This document shows, one piece after another, positions 12,521 to 23,374 of a stretch of 59,556 bases of DNA (within the stretch, counting starts at the first letter, position 1; every line of letters starts with the position of its first letter). Source of the stretch: Saccostrea cucullata. Taxonomy: Eukaryota. The notes beneath the pieces were generated by a model. It ran no database searches. It was given only the letters and a program-made list of their open reading frames with translations, and was not told the origin of the DNA. Where the stretch lies: contig NW_026934361.1 of the NCBI RefSeq assembly GCF_032062105.1, positions 1 through 59,556 of the forward strand. Reading direction: 5' to 3'. Position numbers and translations under genes: made by a program.

Positions 12521-14569
12521 GTAAGATTATTTTCAATTGTTTGCTATTTTTGACCTTTCTGTATTACGGAAACATGACCGCCTCGTGAAGTTGATTTATA
12601 CATCAAACTGACAAAATAAAATGAGTATCATCTGCTTATCAGGCACGTTGCAGGGCGGGGGTGGAGGCTTCTCCATTATTTTCTCAAACATAATTTTCCT
12701 GCTGATGAAAATGTTCATTAGAGTTCATTGCCCCCCCCCCCAACCCAACACTTCTTGTTGCTATAGCCAAATAAGGGTAGTAGTATAAGGCGTCTAGATA
12801 GATGGTTCAACTGAGTGCACTTTTTATGCAAATGAGGTCAAAAATGGAGGATTCTGAATGGTTGGGGGGATAGGGGGGTCAACGGAGTGCAGCCCCCTGG
12901 GGGATAGGGGGGTCAAGGGAGTGCAGATTAGAGGTCTGGGAGGATAGGGGGGTTCAACTCAGTACAGGTCTTAGGGTGGGGGGGATAGGGGGTCAACTCA
13001 GTACAGTCCTTGGGGGGCTAGGTGGGTCAGTACATAGCTCTAAATACGGTGTTTACACTCTACTATACGTGGCTACTACGATTCACAAACGCTGCTACTA
13101 CGATTTTTTGGCAGCGACTCAAGAATGTGATTATGACGTCACGCATTCATTCACAGTCTAAAGCCTAGTCTAGACAGCCTAACCGGTTTGAACTGGATTT
13201 TCTGAAAACAATAACAACCTGGATTTTCTGAAAACAAGAACACAACAAGACAGATTAGAACAAGGCAATTTTTATACAGAATCAAAAATACATCAATTTA
13301 CTTTTTTTTTCGTCTTCTGTGCCTTTTTAGAGATCTGTAATCAATCACTCTGTTATACCCCAAATTTTACAATAAATATTCCCAGATAGCAGGATGTTAT
13401 TGGACCTTTGTTGGGCCAACAATGCTCCTTATGTTGGGCCACCGTTTGTATTCAACATTGGGCCATCGGTAATTTGCTCATCGGCCCTTAATCAAACCAA
13501 CTTGTTGGCTTATTGTTGGGCCAATGTAACAGTTAATATTGGGCCACTGTTGGGCCAATGTATTTTTCAAATATTGGGCAAACGTCATTTTTGTACAATT
13601 GGGTCATTGTAAGTAGTTAATGTTGGGCCAACGGTAATTTGCTCATCGGCCCTTAATCAAACCAACTTGTTGGCTTATTGTTGGGCCAATGTGACAGTTA
13701 ATATTGGGCCACTGTCGGGCCAATGTATTTTTTAAATGTTGGGCAAACGTCATTTTTGTACAATTGGGCCATTGTAAGCAATTAATGTTGGCCAACGGTA
13801 ATTTGCTCATCGGCCCTTAATCAGACCAACTTGTTGGCTTATTGCTGGACCAACGAACGGATATTATTGAGCCATTGTTGGGCCACTTATTCTTTCAATA
13901 TTAGGCAAACATCATTTTTGGGCCAACGTTGGTTTGTATCTTATTGGTTCTCCATCATGACAACTCATTTGCTCTTCACTGGTTGGCCATTTGTCCTCAA
14001 AATTTACAAACAAATACATATATTAAGGTTATACTAGTTTTGTAGTACAGTTTAATGGTAAAAGCCCTTTAATACTATCTATATATGCTAGATTAATAGT
14101 TTAATACATATTCTCAATATATATCTCATAGCATTAATTAAAAAACTGAGGAAAAAGAAATCAAAATGTAAAATTAAATTATAACATACTAGTATTTTAT
14201 TGCTCAGTGCATGAAGAAAACATTAATAAAGAAATAAAAGTTGATGCTCACTTCAAGCGTACATGACTGTATACTCCCTCTCTGATGTAAATTTATGCAC
14301 AAGTTCAGTAAATTGCAGGCATCAATAAGCAGGTCCAACAAATAAACAAAGCCCCCCTGTTCTTAAAATAATACATAAATGAATCCCGTCATTTTGTTTA
14401 CTTACACAAAAAAAATGTTTCTGGCATCTGCATTTGTAACCGACAAACAGACACAGAAAAGGGTAGAACTACAGGTTTGTCACAGTATATAACAGAAAAA
14501 TGCTAGGCACTGCCACTTTCCATCTGATTCCTCTCTTAAGTCTTCACTTCTCTCTCCCTCTCTTCTCTC

Positions 14570-14690
14570 CTCCTCCCCCTTCTTTTCTTCCCTGTCCGTT
14601 TCTTCCTCCCCCATCCCTGTCCTTGGCATACCTTAGCTATTCTTTGATTGTGTTCTGAATGTCTTTTTAGAATCTCCAGTAGCACTAAAA
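14570..14690 (-). pseudogene. Remnant of an EnSpm-associated accessory (DUF4806-like) protein C-terminus
   Basis: The minus strand reads IQNTIKE*LRYAKDRDGGGR, resembling the I..WLR.A.DR.GG tail I associate with these proteins. Recognised from memory. Confidence 0.5.
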
Positions 14691-14793
14691 TTATAGTATT
14701 TGGTACTTAATACATTTGTTACTTTTCTCAGTAAAGAGTAAACATACGATTAAATTTACAAGTATATCACTATATGTTTAAGCTGTCAATTAA

Positions 14794-15731
14794 CGACGTT
14801 CGATCCTGATATTTAAAGTCTTAAACTTTTTTTGCCAAGTATATTTTAAGTTTCTACTTACATAGCTTAATTAAAATTCAAATAAAAAAATGGGGGTCAA
14901 TATGCTTCTTTTGGCGCTACAATACATTTAATATGACCTTCTTGCACTGAAATTTGTGTCTTAATTAAAAATTACACCTTCGACGTTTTCCCTGCAATGA
15001 TTTTATCCAATTAAAGCAAGAAACAAAATGAACTGCAAGTCTATTTAAAAAAAGACACTTTAAAATTGTAACTAAGAAAAAGTTTCAAATTAATTCGCAT
15101 AATCAATTATTTGACCTTTCTGCACTAATAAAATGTGATTTTTATGGCATTGAAAATTTAATAAGCAAGAAAATTATTTTAAAGTCTTAAACTTTTTCTG
15201 AATTTAAGCAAATAGGTCAAAGTTATCTTGAATATTTAGAAAAGAACATCAAAAGTGGGGGTATATGATGTTAATTTTCAGATATAACTAAAAAAGTGTA
15301 AATTTTACGTTAAATTTGGCTCAATTTTCCCCCGCGTTTTCAGAATATATTTACTATATTTGTCACACTTTGTTGATAGTATTCATAAGAAATAATTTAA
15401 TAGATATTTCAGAACCAGCATGGCACATTTTACTGCAAAAAACAGCTTTGTGTGCAACAAGCATGGAAAAATAGGAATCCAAATTAAAGAGTACTGTTAT
15501 ACTTCAAAAGGGAAAAACTGATGATTTTCGTCTAAAAAAAAACCTTTTGCCACAAAATATAGTCCCTATTTTAATTCAACTTGAATGGAATTTAATCGCG
15601 GTTTTTTCATTGAATATAGTTCAGTTTGCATTGTAGAATTCAGATCTAATGTTAGAGTTTTAAAATGATGCAGAATTTTATAAATAAAGGACATGACCAA
15701 AATCCACTCAAAAACTCAGGATCGAACGTCC
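14794..15731. mobile_element. Kolobok-like non-autonomous element
   Basis: TTAA|cGACGTTCGATCCTGA ... TCAGGATCGAACGTCC|TTAA. Confidence 0.85.
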
Positions 15732-16145
15732 TTAAGGAATAACCGTCTTTTTTGTTTCATGGTGTGATTAAGTGATTAGCTTGCATGATGAAGGCATTTA
15801 TGCATAACATTTCTACGCTTGATCATCATCTTCATAACGATTTTGATTCAATGTTGCCCCATATAAATACATGTATAGAAAAGTCGTTACACTGAACAAA
15901 TTTTAATTGAAAGAACCCAATTTATGTTCAACATGTTCAAGTTCAACATTTTCAAAATGTTTGATCATGTGCTTGACGTTAAGTGTATATAAGTAAATTA
16001 AGTGGTAGACTTCGGAAATGTATTTTACTAGTCACACATTTCAATATAAATAAGGGGCAAATTATTTATTGTTTTAACTGTATCAAAACACATTTGTTAT
16101 TTTATACTTTAATTTATTTTTCTTGTATAAAAACAAAACATTTAA

Positions 16146-16460
16146 GGTCAGACGAGACGTTCCTCAAAATCTGTTTTGTATATCTTCGAAATGTTTGAAA
16201 AATATTCAAATTTTAATAACTATGATTTCTAAACCAGTTTCTAAACGTTTTTTAAAAAAATCCAAACACTTAAACATTTGAAATTGGAAAATTATTTTTC
16301 TTCCCCAAAGGATTATATAAGAAAAACTACCCCAGGTATCTTGCAGAAATGCCTGGTAAGGTACCTCAATTTTTTGTGAGTAAACATGTTTAAGTAGCAA
16401 TACTTCAATGACAAACTCTTAGAAAAATTTATCTATTATTAAGGAACGTCTCATCTGTCC
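16146..16460. mobile_element. Kolobok-like MITE
   Basis: TTAA|GGTCAGACGAGACGTTCCT ... AGGAACGTCTCATCTGTCC|TTAA. Confidence 0.85.
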
Positions 16461-17769
16461 TTAATCACTGATAATTTATTTTGTTTTGATAAATTATAAG
16501 AATTTTAACAAGCCTTGTAAATTCATTTTAGCTAGCTTATACCTTCAAGTAGGATTGGTTGTAGATTTTTTTTTATTGTAGAGACGATCAGATTTGTTAA
16601 TACATGTATACAGATTTGTAACAATTGAATGTTTATACACATTAGCCCAATGTTGGTCCAAAATATCAGGCCAACATTGGGCCAAGTAGCAAAATGACAC
16701 TGGACCAACGTCATTTGCCAACATCGGCCCAATGTTCCTATTGACGATGGTCCAACAATGTCGCATTCATTGGACCAATGTTGACGCAACGTTGGGCCAA
16801 TATCTGTAGAAATAACACTCTACACTGGGCCAATTGGCCCAACATATCGGGCCAACATTGGGCCGATGAGCAAACTTAAATTGGGTCAATGTCATTTGTC
16901 AAAATTGGCCCGATGTAACCGATTACATTGGTCCAACGTTGGCCCAATGTTAGCATGCCATCTGGGGTACAGTGTTGACCCAACAGCACATGGCCTCTGC
17001 ACTTCCCTGTGTCTGCTTTGCGCAGATTTGTACATGATATCGTTCAAAAACTAAACGTTAATTCAGCTGTGCCGAGGCAAACATATTATAAATACTTACA
17101 AAGTGGATGCAGATATGCAAGGTATCAGTCTCATTACGCTCGCTCGTCTCAGATTAAAAATGGCGCGGATATTACAAGTAGCCCGGTTGTTGTCTACCCG
17201 TGATGCTCAGTCAGATTCATGGTATATTGGGCCAACGTTGGGCCGATGCCAATCCCCAAACAAATATTTTCTCTCATGATAATAATATTATGTTATAATA
17301 CGAACAGTTAGCCCAACATTAGCGCACCATTATACATAACCAGCGATCGATATTCCATGTTGGGCCATTGCTGGCCCAATATAGGTAACCCAACATAGAT
17401 AATACAACCATAATGTAAGATTGGGCCAACGATGTTCTGCTATCTGGTTTATTACAAATAAATATAAGCATAAACACAATTCAAAAAATAGAATAAAACA
17501 CTCTTTGGTGCTGTGATCACTTAAGTGCAAAGTTGAAATGTTGAAAATATCATATCTAAACAAGAGCAGTCATCCAATGGTAAGCATGGACATAGAAAGT
17601 CCTCTTAATTATTTCAGAATGTGCCAACGTTGTCCCAACGTAATGCTCAGCAGCTAATTATAAAATTGACACCATCAATTAATTGGCAGTATAATAATTG
17701 GGCCTACGTTGGCCCTATATAAATATCCCATCTTTTAAACACCTAAACAAAATAACACTTGTGTGTATT

Positions 17770-18230
17770 TCAAACATTGTGCCAATGTTGAGCCAACATA
17801 CTACTACCAACTTGATAGGACACGTTCTTTAAGGGTGTATTAGAAACAATGGGCCAACGTTGGACTAACATAATACTATCAACTTGATAAGACATTTTCT
17901 TTAAGGGTTTATTAGAAACATCGGGCCAACGTTGGGCCAACATACTACTTGAACTTGATAAGGAACTTTCTTAAAGGGTGTATTACAAACAATGGGCCAA
18001 CGTTGGGCAAACATAATACTACCAACTTTATAAGACATTTTCTTTAAGGGTGTATTACTAACAGTGGGCCAACGTTGGGCCAACTTATTACTACCAACTT
18101 GATAAGACACATTCTTTAAGGGTGTATAACAAACATCAGGCCAACGTTGGGCCAACATACTACTACCAACTTGTAAATACACTTTTCTTTAAGGGTGTAT
18201 TATAAACATTGGTCCAACGTTGGACCAACA
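17770..18230 (+). repeat. Tandem repeat (about 65-70 bp unit, about 6 copies) in the EnSpm-like subterminal region
   Basis: Unit resembles caacatactactaccaacttgataagacattttctttaagggtgtattagaaacaatgggccaacgttgggc. Confidence 0.85.
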
Positions 18231-18393
18231 CCAGGATCCTTCCTTCCTTGGGAACTAAAGTGAATGGAAGTTGCTTACGTTGGATCAACGCTGGGCCAAC
18301 CTAGGAATTCTGTCATGGTCAAGAAGGTTGACTTGTTAACATTGGTCCAACGTTGGCCCATCGTTGTTCCCCCAACGCCAACCATACAACCTT

Positions 18394-18915
18394 TTACAAA
18401 TGTTGGCCCAACATAGTCATGCTATCTGGGTTGAAGACTTTACTAAAGTGTATACGACCAATCAGGTAGTAGGCGTAACTTGGGTGGAATAACCTTCTCT
18501 TTTTCATGTCCTTGAGCAAATCTTGAAGACAGTCTTCTGAATTTCTGTACCAGTGGCTTACATCCAGAATACCAGGAACACCCTCGATTGACCACTTGTA
18601 TTCAGGATCACCAGGAACACCCCATATTGGGTACTTGGATTCAGGACCACCAATTATTCCCTGAATATAGCTGGAGACTAGGTTTCTTCTCTTAGGACAA
18701 TCTGCAGCATGAATTTTTTGTCTTGTTTCCAACCATACTATTTTGGTAATTTCTCTTTGATTAGGCGATTCTGTGGAATGAATTTTAAAATTCATGAAAT
18801 CCTGTATGGCTTCTTCTGTGGTTTTCATCCAAGGTCCCTTCTTGTCAATACCTCCGAATATCTCAATATACCAACGATGCTCCGTTTTCTCTGTCATATT
18901 TTTTGCGTGCTCCAT
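18394..18915 (-). CDS. TIR-encoded unknown protein, left copy; 3' end displaced by the EnSpm-like insertion
   Basis: Near-identical to 36813..37349. The native tail NIYCKIWGITE* lies at about 13345-13380. Confidence 0.75.
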   Translation of the reverse strand: MEHAKNMTEKTEHRWYIEIFGGIDKKGPWMKTTEEAIQDFMNFKIHSTESPNQREITKIVWLETRQKIHAADCPKRRNLVSSYIQGIIGGPESKYPIWGVPGDPEYKWSIEGVPGILDVSHWYRNSEDCLQDLLKDMKKRRLFHPSYAYYLIGRIHFSKVFNPDSMTMLGQHL

Positions 18916-19522
18916 TTTTACCTGTGTCCAGTTCCAAGTGCTCACCAAAAGTGATCTTTAATGTCCAGCTCTGGTTTATATACCTTTACTGTAAGGGGCC
19001 GTGTGCATCAATACTTTTTACCTGCGTTTTTATACCTGTTGCATCATCTGTAAAGGACCGTGTGCAAAAAATATGATAGACCTACGTTTTTTTTTTATGC
19101 TGACTATACAGGTAATACTAGGGGACCGTGTGCAAAAAATATCCGGAGGAGAATTCGACAGTTAGAAGCTTTTGTTAGTTTTTAAGAAATAAAAGAAAAA
19201 TCATTTAATATCACAGTTATGTTATGTTATTTTATGACGTCATCTTTTATACACTCGGGTTCGGGTTCCCTGGATTTGTCACTCTTAATGTAGTCGATAA
19301 ATTTACGGGCGAATGTTGATGATTTAATGTGTTCAATACTTGGATAAAACATTGTGTATGATTGAAATTAATGATTAAAAGTTGTTTAATATATATAGTA
19401 TTCCATGATTTAACTGTTATCTTATTTTATATTGTATTGCATACAGAGAATGGAAAGATGTTGAATATCCATAAGTTTATCCTTATTTACATGATTTCTT
19501 GTATTACACGTTAGGTAGCGCT

Positions 19523-21905: not shown

Positions 21906-22406
21906 TTAATGATGACGAAGAATGTACACATGTTTTTCATAAGTGTGTGCAAATTGTTCAATATAATGTCTATAATGAGTCCAATTTCCTTTGGCTAACC
22001 CACATGCAATCTTGTAAGGAAAAGCATAAGTCTGGTAAGGTAAACGTCCCATTTTTTGTAAACAGGGTTGAAACCATTGCTCTCTATTTTGTGGGGTGTC
22101 TTGATAAGTGGAGATTCTTTTAGGTCTGTGACTTGCTCTGCCATAATCCCATTGAGCTAGTAAACAAATGACCACAGGTGTTTGTGAGGTAAACACCTTA
22201 ATGGTTCCTGGTATTCCTCTATCTTCTTCTACGGCTAAATTTCTAGTCCCTAGAGGTCTGCGAGTCGCATACACATTGGCTTGAGGGAATTTCTCTGCAA
22301 TACTTTGACTCAATCCATGAGCTTTTACAGTTAAACAATTACATTGATGGACAACGGCTTCTACCTCACAGTTAAGTAAATCACCTTGTATCTCCTGAAG
22401 ACTCAT
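21906..22406 (-). CDS. Macrodomain protein (Poa1p/TARG1/DarG-like ADP-ribose-processing fold)
   Basis: Motifs EIQGDLL, VVHQCNC....AHGLSQSIAEKFP, GTI, VICLLAQ, AFPYKIACGLAKGNW. TATA at 22448 and Inr at 22415 support the ATG at 22406. Confidence 0.88.
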   Translation of the reverse strand: MSLQEIQGDLLNCEVEAVVHQCNCLTVKAHGLSQSIAEKFPQANVYATRRPLGTRNLAVEEDRGIPGTIKVFTSQTPVVICLLAQWDYGRASHRPKRISTYQDTPQNREQWFQPCLQKMGRLPYQTYAFPYKIACGLAKGNWTHYRHYIEQFAHTYEKHVYILRHH

Positions 22407-22477: not shown

Positions 22478-23137
22478 TTAGGTAAATCTACAATCTCTTG
22501 GAACTAATTCTTTGTTTCTCACCTCAGATTTAAGAACCCCATATTCTTCATAGTCACCTTGTCTGTAAAATGTTCTTTCCAATTCTGGTGTGCTGTGAGA
22601 CATATCAAAACAGGTTAACCCATGAATCTTTTTGTACATGTATCTCTGATGACCGCTGTATTTCATTTGAATGAATCCTCTCACATGATGAAGTTTTCCA
22701 GTTTCTGGATGCATTTCTTTTTGTAAGATCAAGTATTGATAATCACTTCTAATGATTTGATCTACATCTTCCTGTCTGCACCCAGTTAAATTAAATATCC
22801 AGTTTTTGGCTACTCTAAATCTGTCTATTTTAAACTTAGCAATATAACGATTGCCTGTATTTTCTTTATGTTTGTTATGATAATGAGTCTTAATATCTTC
22901 CAAGAGTTGAGTTTGGACTTCTTTCATTATTTGTGGACTCTTCTCCTCTATGGGTTTAAACTCCATTGTCTTTGTCAATCTTTTTTCTTTTTCCTCCTCC
23001 TGAGGTTTATATTCTACAGGATGCTCTTCCATCAAGGGAGGTGGTATGATATCTTTTCCTCCCTCCTGTTTAAGTAACCATTCAGTTTCCTCTAATCTAG
23101 TGTTCTGACTCATTTCTTTGCTGAAGCTGTTACCCAT
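22478..23137 (-). CDS. Protein with an MGNSFS N-terminus and a C-terminal CRESS-DNA-virus Rep-like HUH endonuclease domain (degenerate; no helicase), 219 aa
   Basis: AKNWIFNL (motif I), YLILQKEMHPETGKLHHVRGFIQM (motif II region) and ERTFYRQGDYEEYG (motif III region) follow circovirus/nanovirus Rep spacing. TATAAATA at 23189 and TCAGT at 23157 define the ATG at 23137. Confidence 0.75.
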   Translation of the reverse strand: MGNSFSKEMSQNTRLEETEWLLKQEGGKDIIPPPLMEEHPVEYKPQEEEKEKRLTKTMEFKPIEEKSPQIMKEVQTQLLEDIKTHYHNKHKENTGNRYIAKFKIDRFRVAKNWIFNLTGCRQEDVDQIIRSDYQYLILQKEMHPETGKLHHVRGFIQMKYSGHQRYMYKKIHGLTCFDMSHSTPELERTFYRQGDYEEYGVLKSEVRNKELVPRDCRFT

Positions 23138-23374
23138 AAGAAAGCCAGTCCACAACTGAGGTGTGTTTGTACCATGTTTACTATTTATACCTTTTTTCAT
23201 TGTATCTATTTTTTCCCCCAATCTTTAAATCAAACCCTTACCATTTTGTTTTGTGTATTGAAAAATAATCTATGGTTAAAGGGAGATAACCTACTTTTAA
23301 AAATGACAAAAACCACAATTTTTTTCCCCTTTTATTTGTAACAACAAACAACAACAACAAACAACAACAATGCA

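Follow-up and report, generated by a model that had tools for sequence, protein, structure and literature searches.

A degenerate CRESS-type Rep domain kept as an optional gene in Polintons of Saccostrea cucullata

A gene of a Saccostrea cucullata Polinton, here named RepA, carries a Rep nuclease domain of the type found in CRESS DNA viruses, with its catalytic residues replaced. It lies at 22478–23137, on the reverse strand, in the window that we analysed (the whole stretch of 59,556 nucleotides of contig NW_026934361.1), and codes for 219 amino acids, which make up a predicted myristoylation signal, a variable charged linker and a dead Rep HUH domain. This dead domain is an optional Polinton accessory under purifying selection. 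We put at about 45% the probability that it binds and sequesters single-stranded DNA (ssDNA) without cutting it, with a myristoylated N-terminus predicted to anchor the protein to membranes.

A Rep nuclease fold in a Polinton gene

The host element, at 12779–37901, is bounded by AGTAGT...ACTACT ends, with terminal inverted repeats (TIRs) of about 1.15 kb and a 6-bp target site duplication, AAGGGT. It codes for pPolB, an integrase-chromo protein (rve), an A32 packaging ATPase, an IAP and a protein with a weak adenain match. This agrees with the make-up of Polinton/Maverick elements (adintoviruses) given in the accessible text of PMC8502044: standard ends and duplication, pPolB, integrase-chromo, ATPase, protease and a variable region of accessory genes. 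The copy is damaged, its polymerase, capsid and penton frames being split, and its left TIR is interrupted at 13381–18433 by an insert of some 5 kb, which carries tandem repeats of 72 bp and 165 bp. Beyond both ends lie inverted 21-bp tandem arrays (12014–12520 and 38490–39200), which suggests insertion into another element, of the foldback type. Further out, a DDE_Tnp_4 (Harbinger-like) transposase at 1858–2751 on the forward strand faces a YqaJ-domain frame at 2887–4140 on the reverse strand.

RepA has an adenain-like protease gene as its upstream neighbour (23489–23878, reverse strand; Peptidase_C5 at a weak E of 0.13). The downstream neighbour (21906–22406, reverse strand), which shows the same promoter pattern as RepA, is likely to be a macrodomain gene: a search of PDB sequences with the gene of a sister copy returned four weak matches (E 0.15–0.71), all of which we take to be macrodomains. 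RING and IAP genes belong to the same element.

The Rep fold of RepA spans residues 109–202 (22532–22813, reverse strand). Its motifs follow one another in the order and with the spacing of Reps: WIFNLTG from W113, QKE from Q139, HHVRGF from H150, TFYRQGD from T189 and YEEYG from Y196. Pfam Viral_Rep (PF02407) matches residues 113–173 with E 0.0023 and 18.6 bits, under the curated cut-off of 26. A profile made of 16 family domains and scored against 1.84 billion representative proteins matched 55 of them, two being members of the family itself; 50 of the 53 others are Viral_Rep proteins at E of 1e-5 or below, and many of these 50 also bear a helicase family. Among PDB sequences the same profile reached no better than E 0.12 for the FBNYV Rep, ranked under spurious TPR matches. 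Structure predictions agree with the profile. A first AlphaFold model (pLDDT 85.6) matches PCV2 Rep both by Foldseek (6wdz, E 2.4e-6) and by VIA (Z 13.8, rmsd 2.4 over 97 aligned residues), while the alignment behind it included Reps and is therefore partly circular. For this reason a second model was built from family sequences only (pLDDT 70.5). It displays the same order of elements and gives a circovirus Rep, 7kij, as top Foldseek rank (E 8.2e-4). A language-model search of the Atlas pointed to Cressdnaviricota Viral_Rep clusters at 0.94. Profiles and predicted structures together confirm that the C-terminal domain of RepA has the CRESS Rep HUH nuclease fold of circoviruses and nanoviruses. 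The initial annotation had read a CRESS-type Rep origin from motif order and spacing, and this reading holds, circovirus Rep ranking first even with the model from which Rep sequences were kept out.

Lost catalysis, selection and patchy presence

RepA belongs to a family with at least 220 matches in the whole genome, 150 of 520 candidates having been scored. Sister copies reveal a paralogue, B, upstream of A (the RepA type) and absent from the present copy; the gene order in many copies is protease, B, A, macrodomain-like gene. We sampled 90 loci, chosen non-randomly as best matches, open frames, divergent B copies or capsid matches. They contained 88 domains, one of which, with compensating indels, was dropped, leaving 87 intact ones (46 A and 41 B).

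Catalysis by PCV2 Rep involves Glu48, His57, Gln59 and Tyr96, and possibly Lys99 as base, according to the part of the text accessible for 10.1101/2020.09.01.278671. The column of the catalytic tyrosine is phenylalanine in all 87 intact domains and tyrosine in all 50 Reps compared, and that of the motif III lysine is glutamine in 86 of the 87. Motif III (22559–22570, reverse strand) thus reads F190-Y-R-Q193 where Reps have Y-x-x-K, in a register fixed from both sides, paralogue B having the exact Rep spacing. At the former metal site (22679–22717, reverse strand) E141 is retained, as is the glutamate of the metal triad in 85 of the 87 domains, and HUQ has become H-H-V-R (150–153). Here the glutamine ligand is replaced by arginine in 86 of 87 domains, the register of the histidines being ambiguous by one inserted residue. 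The initial annotation had seen the change from YxxK to FxxQ, which is borne out; the arginine at HUQ is a further change and corrects it. The replacements of tyrosine, lysine and glutamine are common to A and B despite a divergence of dS about 1.2 between them.

Other features of active Reps have also changed. Motif I, FT(L/I)NN, has become FNLTG or FDLTG in A and takes forms such as FTIKE and FIISE in B. Segment 173–182 (22592–22621, reverse strand), counterpart of the PCV2 ssDNA-bridging motif, varies in its first half among subfamilies, and the histidine and Arg/Lys-Gly of active Reps are altered there. The frame ends 17 residues past the domain and matches no helicase family in Pfam, so that RepA is without an oligomerisation or SF3 helicase region; for the helicase, this is what had been proposed at the outset. 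With CRESS Reps (PF02407; PCV2, 6wdz and 5xor; Muscovy duck circovirus, 7kij; FBNYV, 6h8o) RepA shares fold, motif order and spacing, and the metal-triad glutamate. It differs from active ones in the loss of catalytic tyrosine and lysine, the broken HUQ, the changed motif I, the missing C-terminal regions and an N-terminal leader of 110–170 residues, and no capsid gene or origin stem-loop adjoins it. When we looked for an origin stem-loop with a conserved nonanucleotide, the matches on the TIR side had no evident stem and were not conserved across repeat units. Motif I, HUQ, YxxK, helicase and origin all place RepA outside the active Rep initiators, and active nicking is excluded by its sequence.

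Purifying selection holds the Rep domains of both RepA and B. A codon model gives omega 0.29 for the whole domain in A (46 copies) and 0.36 in B (41 copies), with 2dlnL against omega=1 of 48 and 57, and 0.23 and 0.29 for the domain core, where neutrality is again rejected; all these values come from copies chosen in part for their open frames, and recombination among them may introduce bias. The model had been fitted because pairwise counting has a neutral baseline of about 0.65–0.9. With that limit, and with one B row counted among A, pairwise omega is 0.46 for A, 0.43 for B and 0.26 for A versus B; neighbouring genes are held more tightly (capsid 0.10, protease 0.22, macrodomain 0.22). Near-identical A pairs reach 0.97, as expected of mutation after insertion. 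The variable segment of the bridging motif is relaxed, with omega 0.46 and 0.54. Positive selection there had been considered from a pairwise pN/pS of about 1, and was discarded when the codon model brought the ratio down to these values.

The gene is nevertheless optional. Ten of 16 loci picked by capsid match, which were those missing from the A and B lists, have no Rep-like gene, and in eight of the ten the protease adjoins the macrodomain gene. A capsid-protease tree with 38 rows requires at least 13 changes among the states none, A, B and both, where the minimum is 3, and copies without the gene form near-identical groups. Ten empty loci and 13 changes make RepA an optional accessory, repeatedly lost. 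The initial annotation regarded absence from sister copies as fatal to its proposal: the gene turns out to be both widespread, with its 220 or more matches, and missing from many copies. It also called RepA an assimilated gene, from its intact frame and a promoter in common with core genes. The shared promoter stands, as does purifying selection across the sister copies; optional presence and repeated loss qualify the claim, and, with the polymerase, capsid and penton frames split in this copy, an intact RepA frame proves little without the sister copies.

Traces of exchange are visible around the gene. In loci L088 and L096 the TATA box of the B promoter passes directly into the initiator of the macrodomain gene, a junction whose sequence suggests cassette exchange between similar promoters, and L093 retains a decayed A promoter. 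Several loci (L104, L105, L048, L066-L072) show A/B chimeras and 3′-truncated B variants, which suggest recombination between the paralogues in their common C-terminal stretch. Many non-autonomous copies are broken. One short non-autonomous element (L062, G000 C18011) has long inverted arms around a RepA domain, without core genes.

Start, leader and expression

The frame at 22478–23137 opens with MGNSFS and, as first described, runs for 219 residues. Upstream of it, a promoter-like site (23155–23189, reverse strand) combines TATAAA at 23184–23189 with a TCAGT initiator at 23155–23159. The element has 15 instances of the pattern TATA-(18–28 nt)-[TC]CA[GT]T, against a mean of 3.9 and a maximum of 11 in 50 mononucleotide shuffles. 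Twelve of the 15 sites run straight into a frame of at least 87 residues, and the first ATG after the site of RepA is that at 23137. The TATA box, the CAGT-type initiator and the MGN layout are also retained in a subfamily whose upstream DNA otherwise differs. Two other starts were considered. The ATG at 23200, which gives a longer ATG-to-stop frame, lies upstream of the TATA box, and the ATG between TATA box and initiator, in several copies, either lies in another frame or runs into a stop. The promoter pattern supports translation from the MGN at 23137, the start that the initial annotation had chosen for the same reason.

A modular promoter repeat of about 63 bp is found at 19075–19140 (reverse strand) and 36640–36700 (forward strand), as well as, in many copies, upstream of the genes for B and the macrodomain protein. 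Its constant blocks are GCACACGG, TACCTG, AGTCAGCA and ACGTAGG, and the repeat usually follows a TGACGTCA site.

The first residues, MGNSFSK (23117–23137, reverse strand), are a predicted N-myristoylation signal. MGxxxS is the motif rule for N-myristoylation, and this copy, with its start taken from the promoter pattern, has both Gly2 and a serine at position 6. Of 48 A-type starts, 47 have Gly2 and 33 have Ser6 as well; in a clade of 13, Arg6 takes the place of Ser6. Paralogue B begins with MWLSK and has neither Gly2 nor such a signal. MGNSFS, previously taken for a canonical motif, is thus well preserved in its glycine and less so in its serine. The leader before the Rep domain of A measures 110–170 residues, with a linker of variable length (211–285 residues for the protein). 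Two named relatives of the N-terminal part are proteins of Saccostrea cucullata.

The N-terminal part also exists on its own. The genome contains high-copy, near-perfect palindromes of up to about 14–20 kb, with arms 96–99% identical and similarity to Polinton ends (G000 C23042:100500-118000, C16720, C11641, C5653 and C6922; L118-L127, among 150 matches listed). In these palindromic non-autonomous derivatives the sole clear frame, present once per arm, is the N-terminal part of long-form RepA, 120–126 residues beginning with MGNTSSK. All eight examined open in this way and keep a decayed remnant of the linker after the stop; omega for these eight copies is 0.37, with an interval of 0.15–1.01. 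A search of the Atlas with this frame returned no usable match.

Expression of RepA is no more than weakly hinted at. Three poly(A) raw-read runs have background depth only (0–6) over RepA and its neighbours. RNA contigs from four runs out of four, belonging to three studies and chosen for holding this region, cover the frames of both paralogues. In these runs contig depth is near zero just upstream of the initiator of A, and one contig starts 5 nt before it. As contigs cannot reveal a start, and one of them runs further upstream, this gives just a weak hint about the start of A.

Possible roles and precedents

How would a dead Rep serve a Polinton? A single Rep would have been captured and inactivated before the duplication into A and B, and A would then have been fused to its myristoylated leader. 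In the remodelled groove, Arg153, beside the retained Glu141, may replace the metal and grip a phosphate of DNA. The protein would act in conflict rather than in replication, hiding ssDNA, be it the displaced strands of the element or that of a co-infecting virus, from rival enzymes or the sensors of the host. The patchy presence of RepA argues against a core role in replication, while its neighbours (the likely macrodomain gene, RING, IAP) and insertions of CRESS sequences in the host genome point to conflict between virus and host or between viruses. These insertions (G000 C1763:120.4 kb and C21072:2.5 kb; L112-L117) are degraded and duplicated, with Rep and Cap fragments and no Polinton gene within about 10 kb; one bears TAGTATTAC in a stem-like context. 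A more far-reaching version, which we offer tentatively, would make the captured nickase a membrane-tethered, metal-free ssDNA sponge, with duplicated variants of its specificity loop, protecting the element and the host cell against ssDNA viruses or DNA sensing. It would be one case of recurring dead-Rep conflict proteins, evolved independently in dsDNA viruses (poxviruses and Polintons).

Six near-invariant new residues, Q139, S180, S182, R153, F190 and Q193, are found in both A and B. They gather in the old active-site groove, which most likely still binds something. What it binds is where readings diverge. The altered Thr and Asn-Asn of motif I, the changed bridging motif and the acidity of B (a net charge of about −8, where Reps have +1.8) argue against ordinary ssDNA binding, at least in B. 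They favour a protein-binding scaffold, in which DNA binding is gone and the Rep fold is reused as antagonist or adaptor of host immunity. The resemblance of neighbouring genes to host-interaction genes fits this idea, as does the separate existence of the N-terminal 120 residues, with no Rep domain attached, in many of the palindromes. We find it rather doubtful, since the best-conserved new residues line the very groove of the former active site and tyrosine to phenylalanine is a conservative change that preserves binding in Reps. Indeed, Reps with this change retain ssDNA binding in crystal structures, as far as the accessible text of 10.1101/2020.09.01.278671 goes.

Sequence-specific binding is a second alternative: RepA would be a decoy that blocks the Rep of co-infecting CRESS viruses by sitting on their origin loop. 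The host insertions, with TAGTATTAC in one of them, and the variable specificity half of the bridging motif would suit such a role, already proposed for avipoxvirus Reps in the available text of PMC10193959. The decoy seems unlikely to us: several residues of the former DNA contact have been replaced, the variable segment is relaxed rather than positively selected, the protein has no oligomerisation domain, a membrane anchor is ill-suited to the nuclear replication of CRESS viruses, and the Rep of a host insertion is not sister to the RepA family.

The initial annotation had thought of an origin-binding regulator, and we considered one acting on the replication or excision of the Polinton itself. 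What speaks for it is the position of TAGTATTACC and AAGTATTACC, immediately inward of both TIRs in this copy; two such matches are reached in 3 of 100 shuffles. As nonanucleotide-like targets they were rejected, for they prove to be one homologous repeat, a T-run length variant of the promoter repeat with TACCT as constant part, and most of 75 aligned units differ. Since enrichment of the motif against letter permutations is weak (P 0.02–0.33 over six settings), and copies without the gene exist as near-identical groups, a role at the origin is very unlikely, the sites near the TIRs not being conserved. So, too, and at least as improbable, is a myristoylated minor virion protein for membrane entry whose DNA-holding core domain would be the Rep fold. 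The gene does come next after those of capsid and protease, and the accessible text of PMC11071296 discusses myristoylated membrane-active capsid proteins in related virus groups, but the gene is optional, its linker varies in length (211–285 residues for the whole protein) and B has no signal. A neutral passenger spread by a young element, as omega 0.97 in near-identical A pairs and the many broken non-autonomous copies might suggest, is hardly credible given the rejection of neutrality at omega 0.23–0.36 over core and whole domain and the frame and fold retained across A and B at dS about 1.2.

RepA has its closest precedent in avipoxviruses. In the text available for PMC10193959, apvRep-1, -3 and -4 are captured CRESS Reps reduced to the endonuclease domain, with HUH and tyrosine lost, under purifying selection; they exist in several copies, with occasional loss and some N-terminal fusions, and their function is described there as unknown. 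RepA resembles them as a nuclease-only, selected domain deprived of catalytic motifs, a likeness of functional class. It differs in its recipient, an integrating invertebrate Polinton, in its patchier presence and in the predicted myristoylation signal of A, a word absent from the main text of that paper. Capture of a parvovirus Rep by dsDNA viruses is also on record, for U94 of HHV-6 and ORF12 of fowl adenovirus (PMC10193959 and PMC11071296, in their accessible parts). U94, as portrayed there, has inactivated endonuclease motifs like RepA and, unlike it, a parvovirus donor and retained helicase motifs. Circovirus-like Reps count as replicases in virophages of the Gulliviroviridae, where they are nickases (10.64898/2026.10.13.758929, accessible text), and in some (CressRep) adomaviruses (PMC11071296, accessible text). 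Such Reps thus occur in small dsDNA viruses that include the broader group of Polintons and virophages. The element of RepA, by contrast, codes for pPolB and carries a Rep domain that is dead and optional. Nickases of this kind make an indirect donor, through an intermediate virus, possible for RepA.

The full-text literature that we searched, which included the accessible parts of PMC8502044 and PMC11296320, few subscription papers and no supplementary genome annotations, contains no Rep-derived accessory gene of a Polinton, and as far as these searches go the gene is new for these elements. The initial annotation was not aware of any earlier description; this stands for Polintons and gives way, more broadly, to the avipoxvirus precedent of PMC10193959, in its available text. 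RepA thereby extends the capture and inactivation of ssDNA-virus Reps from poxviruses and herpesviruses to an integrating invertebrate Polinton; placed beside those cases, it implies that the same reduction, to a selected nuclease-only domain without catalysis, arose more than once. A further suggestion is that at some time one cell contained both a Polinton and a CRESS-type replicon. The role of dead Reps is a question left standing by the avipoxvirus paper (PMC10193959, accessible text), and the RepA family, a small well-folded domain with two paralogues and dozens of natural variants, is suited to a direct test of binding.

As to the donor, A and B group together as a single branch (support 93/88, under the starred threshold) in a tree of Reps that took in no apvRep or krikovirus sequence. 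The Rep of the host CRESS insertion is not sister to them in this tree, and is no close relative of the donor. Pattern scans for other hosts or free viruses, which detect close relatives only, found no locus in viral contigs, metagenome contigs or phages. Two degenerate Reps, P0011 and P0019, join the branch next, possibly through long-branch attraction. With P0043 they come from metagenome data; P0011 is some 40% identical to the RepA family, and P0019 is a full-length Rep with an N-terminal extension, phenylalanine and glutamine at motif III, and a decayed helicase.
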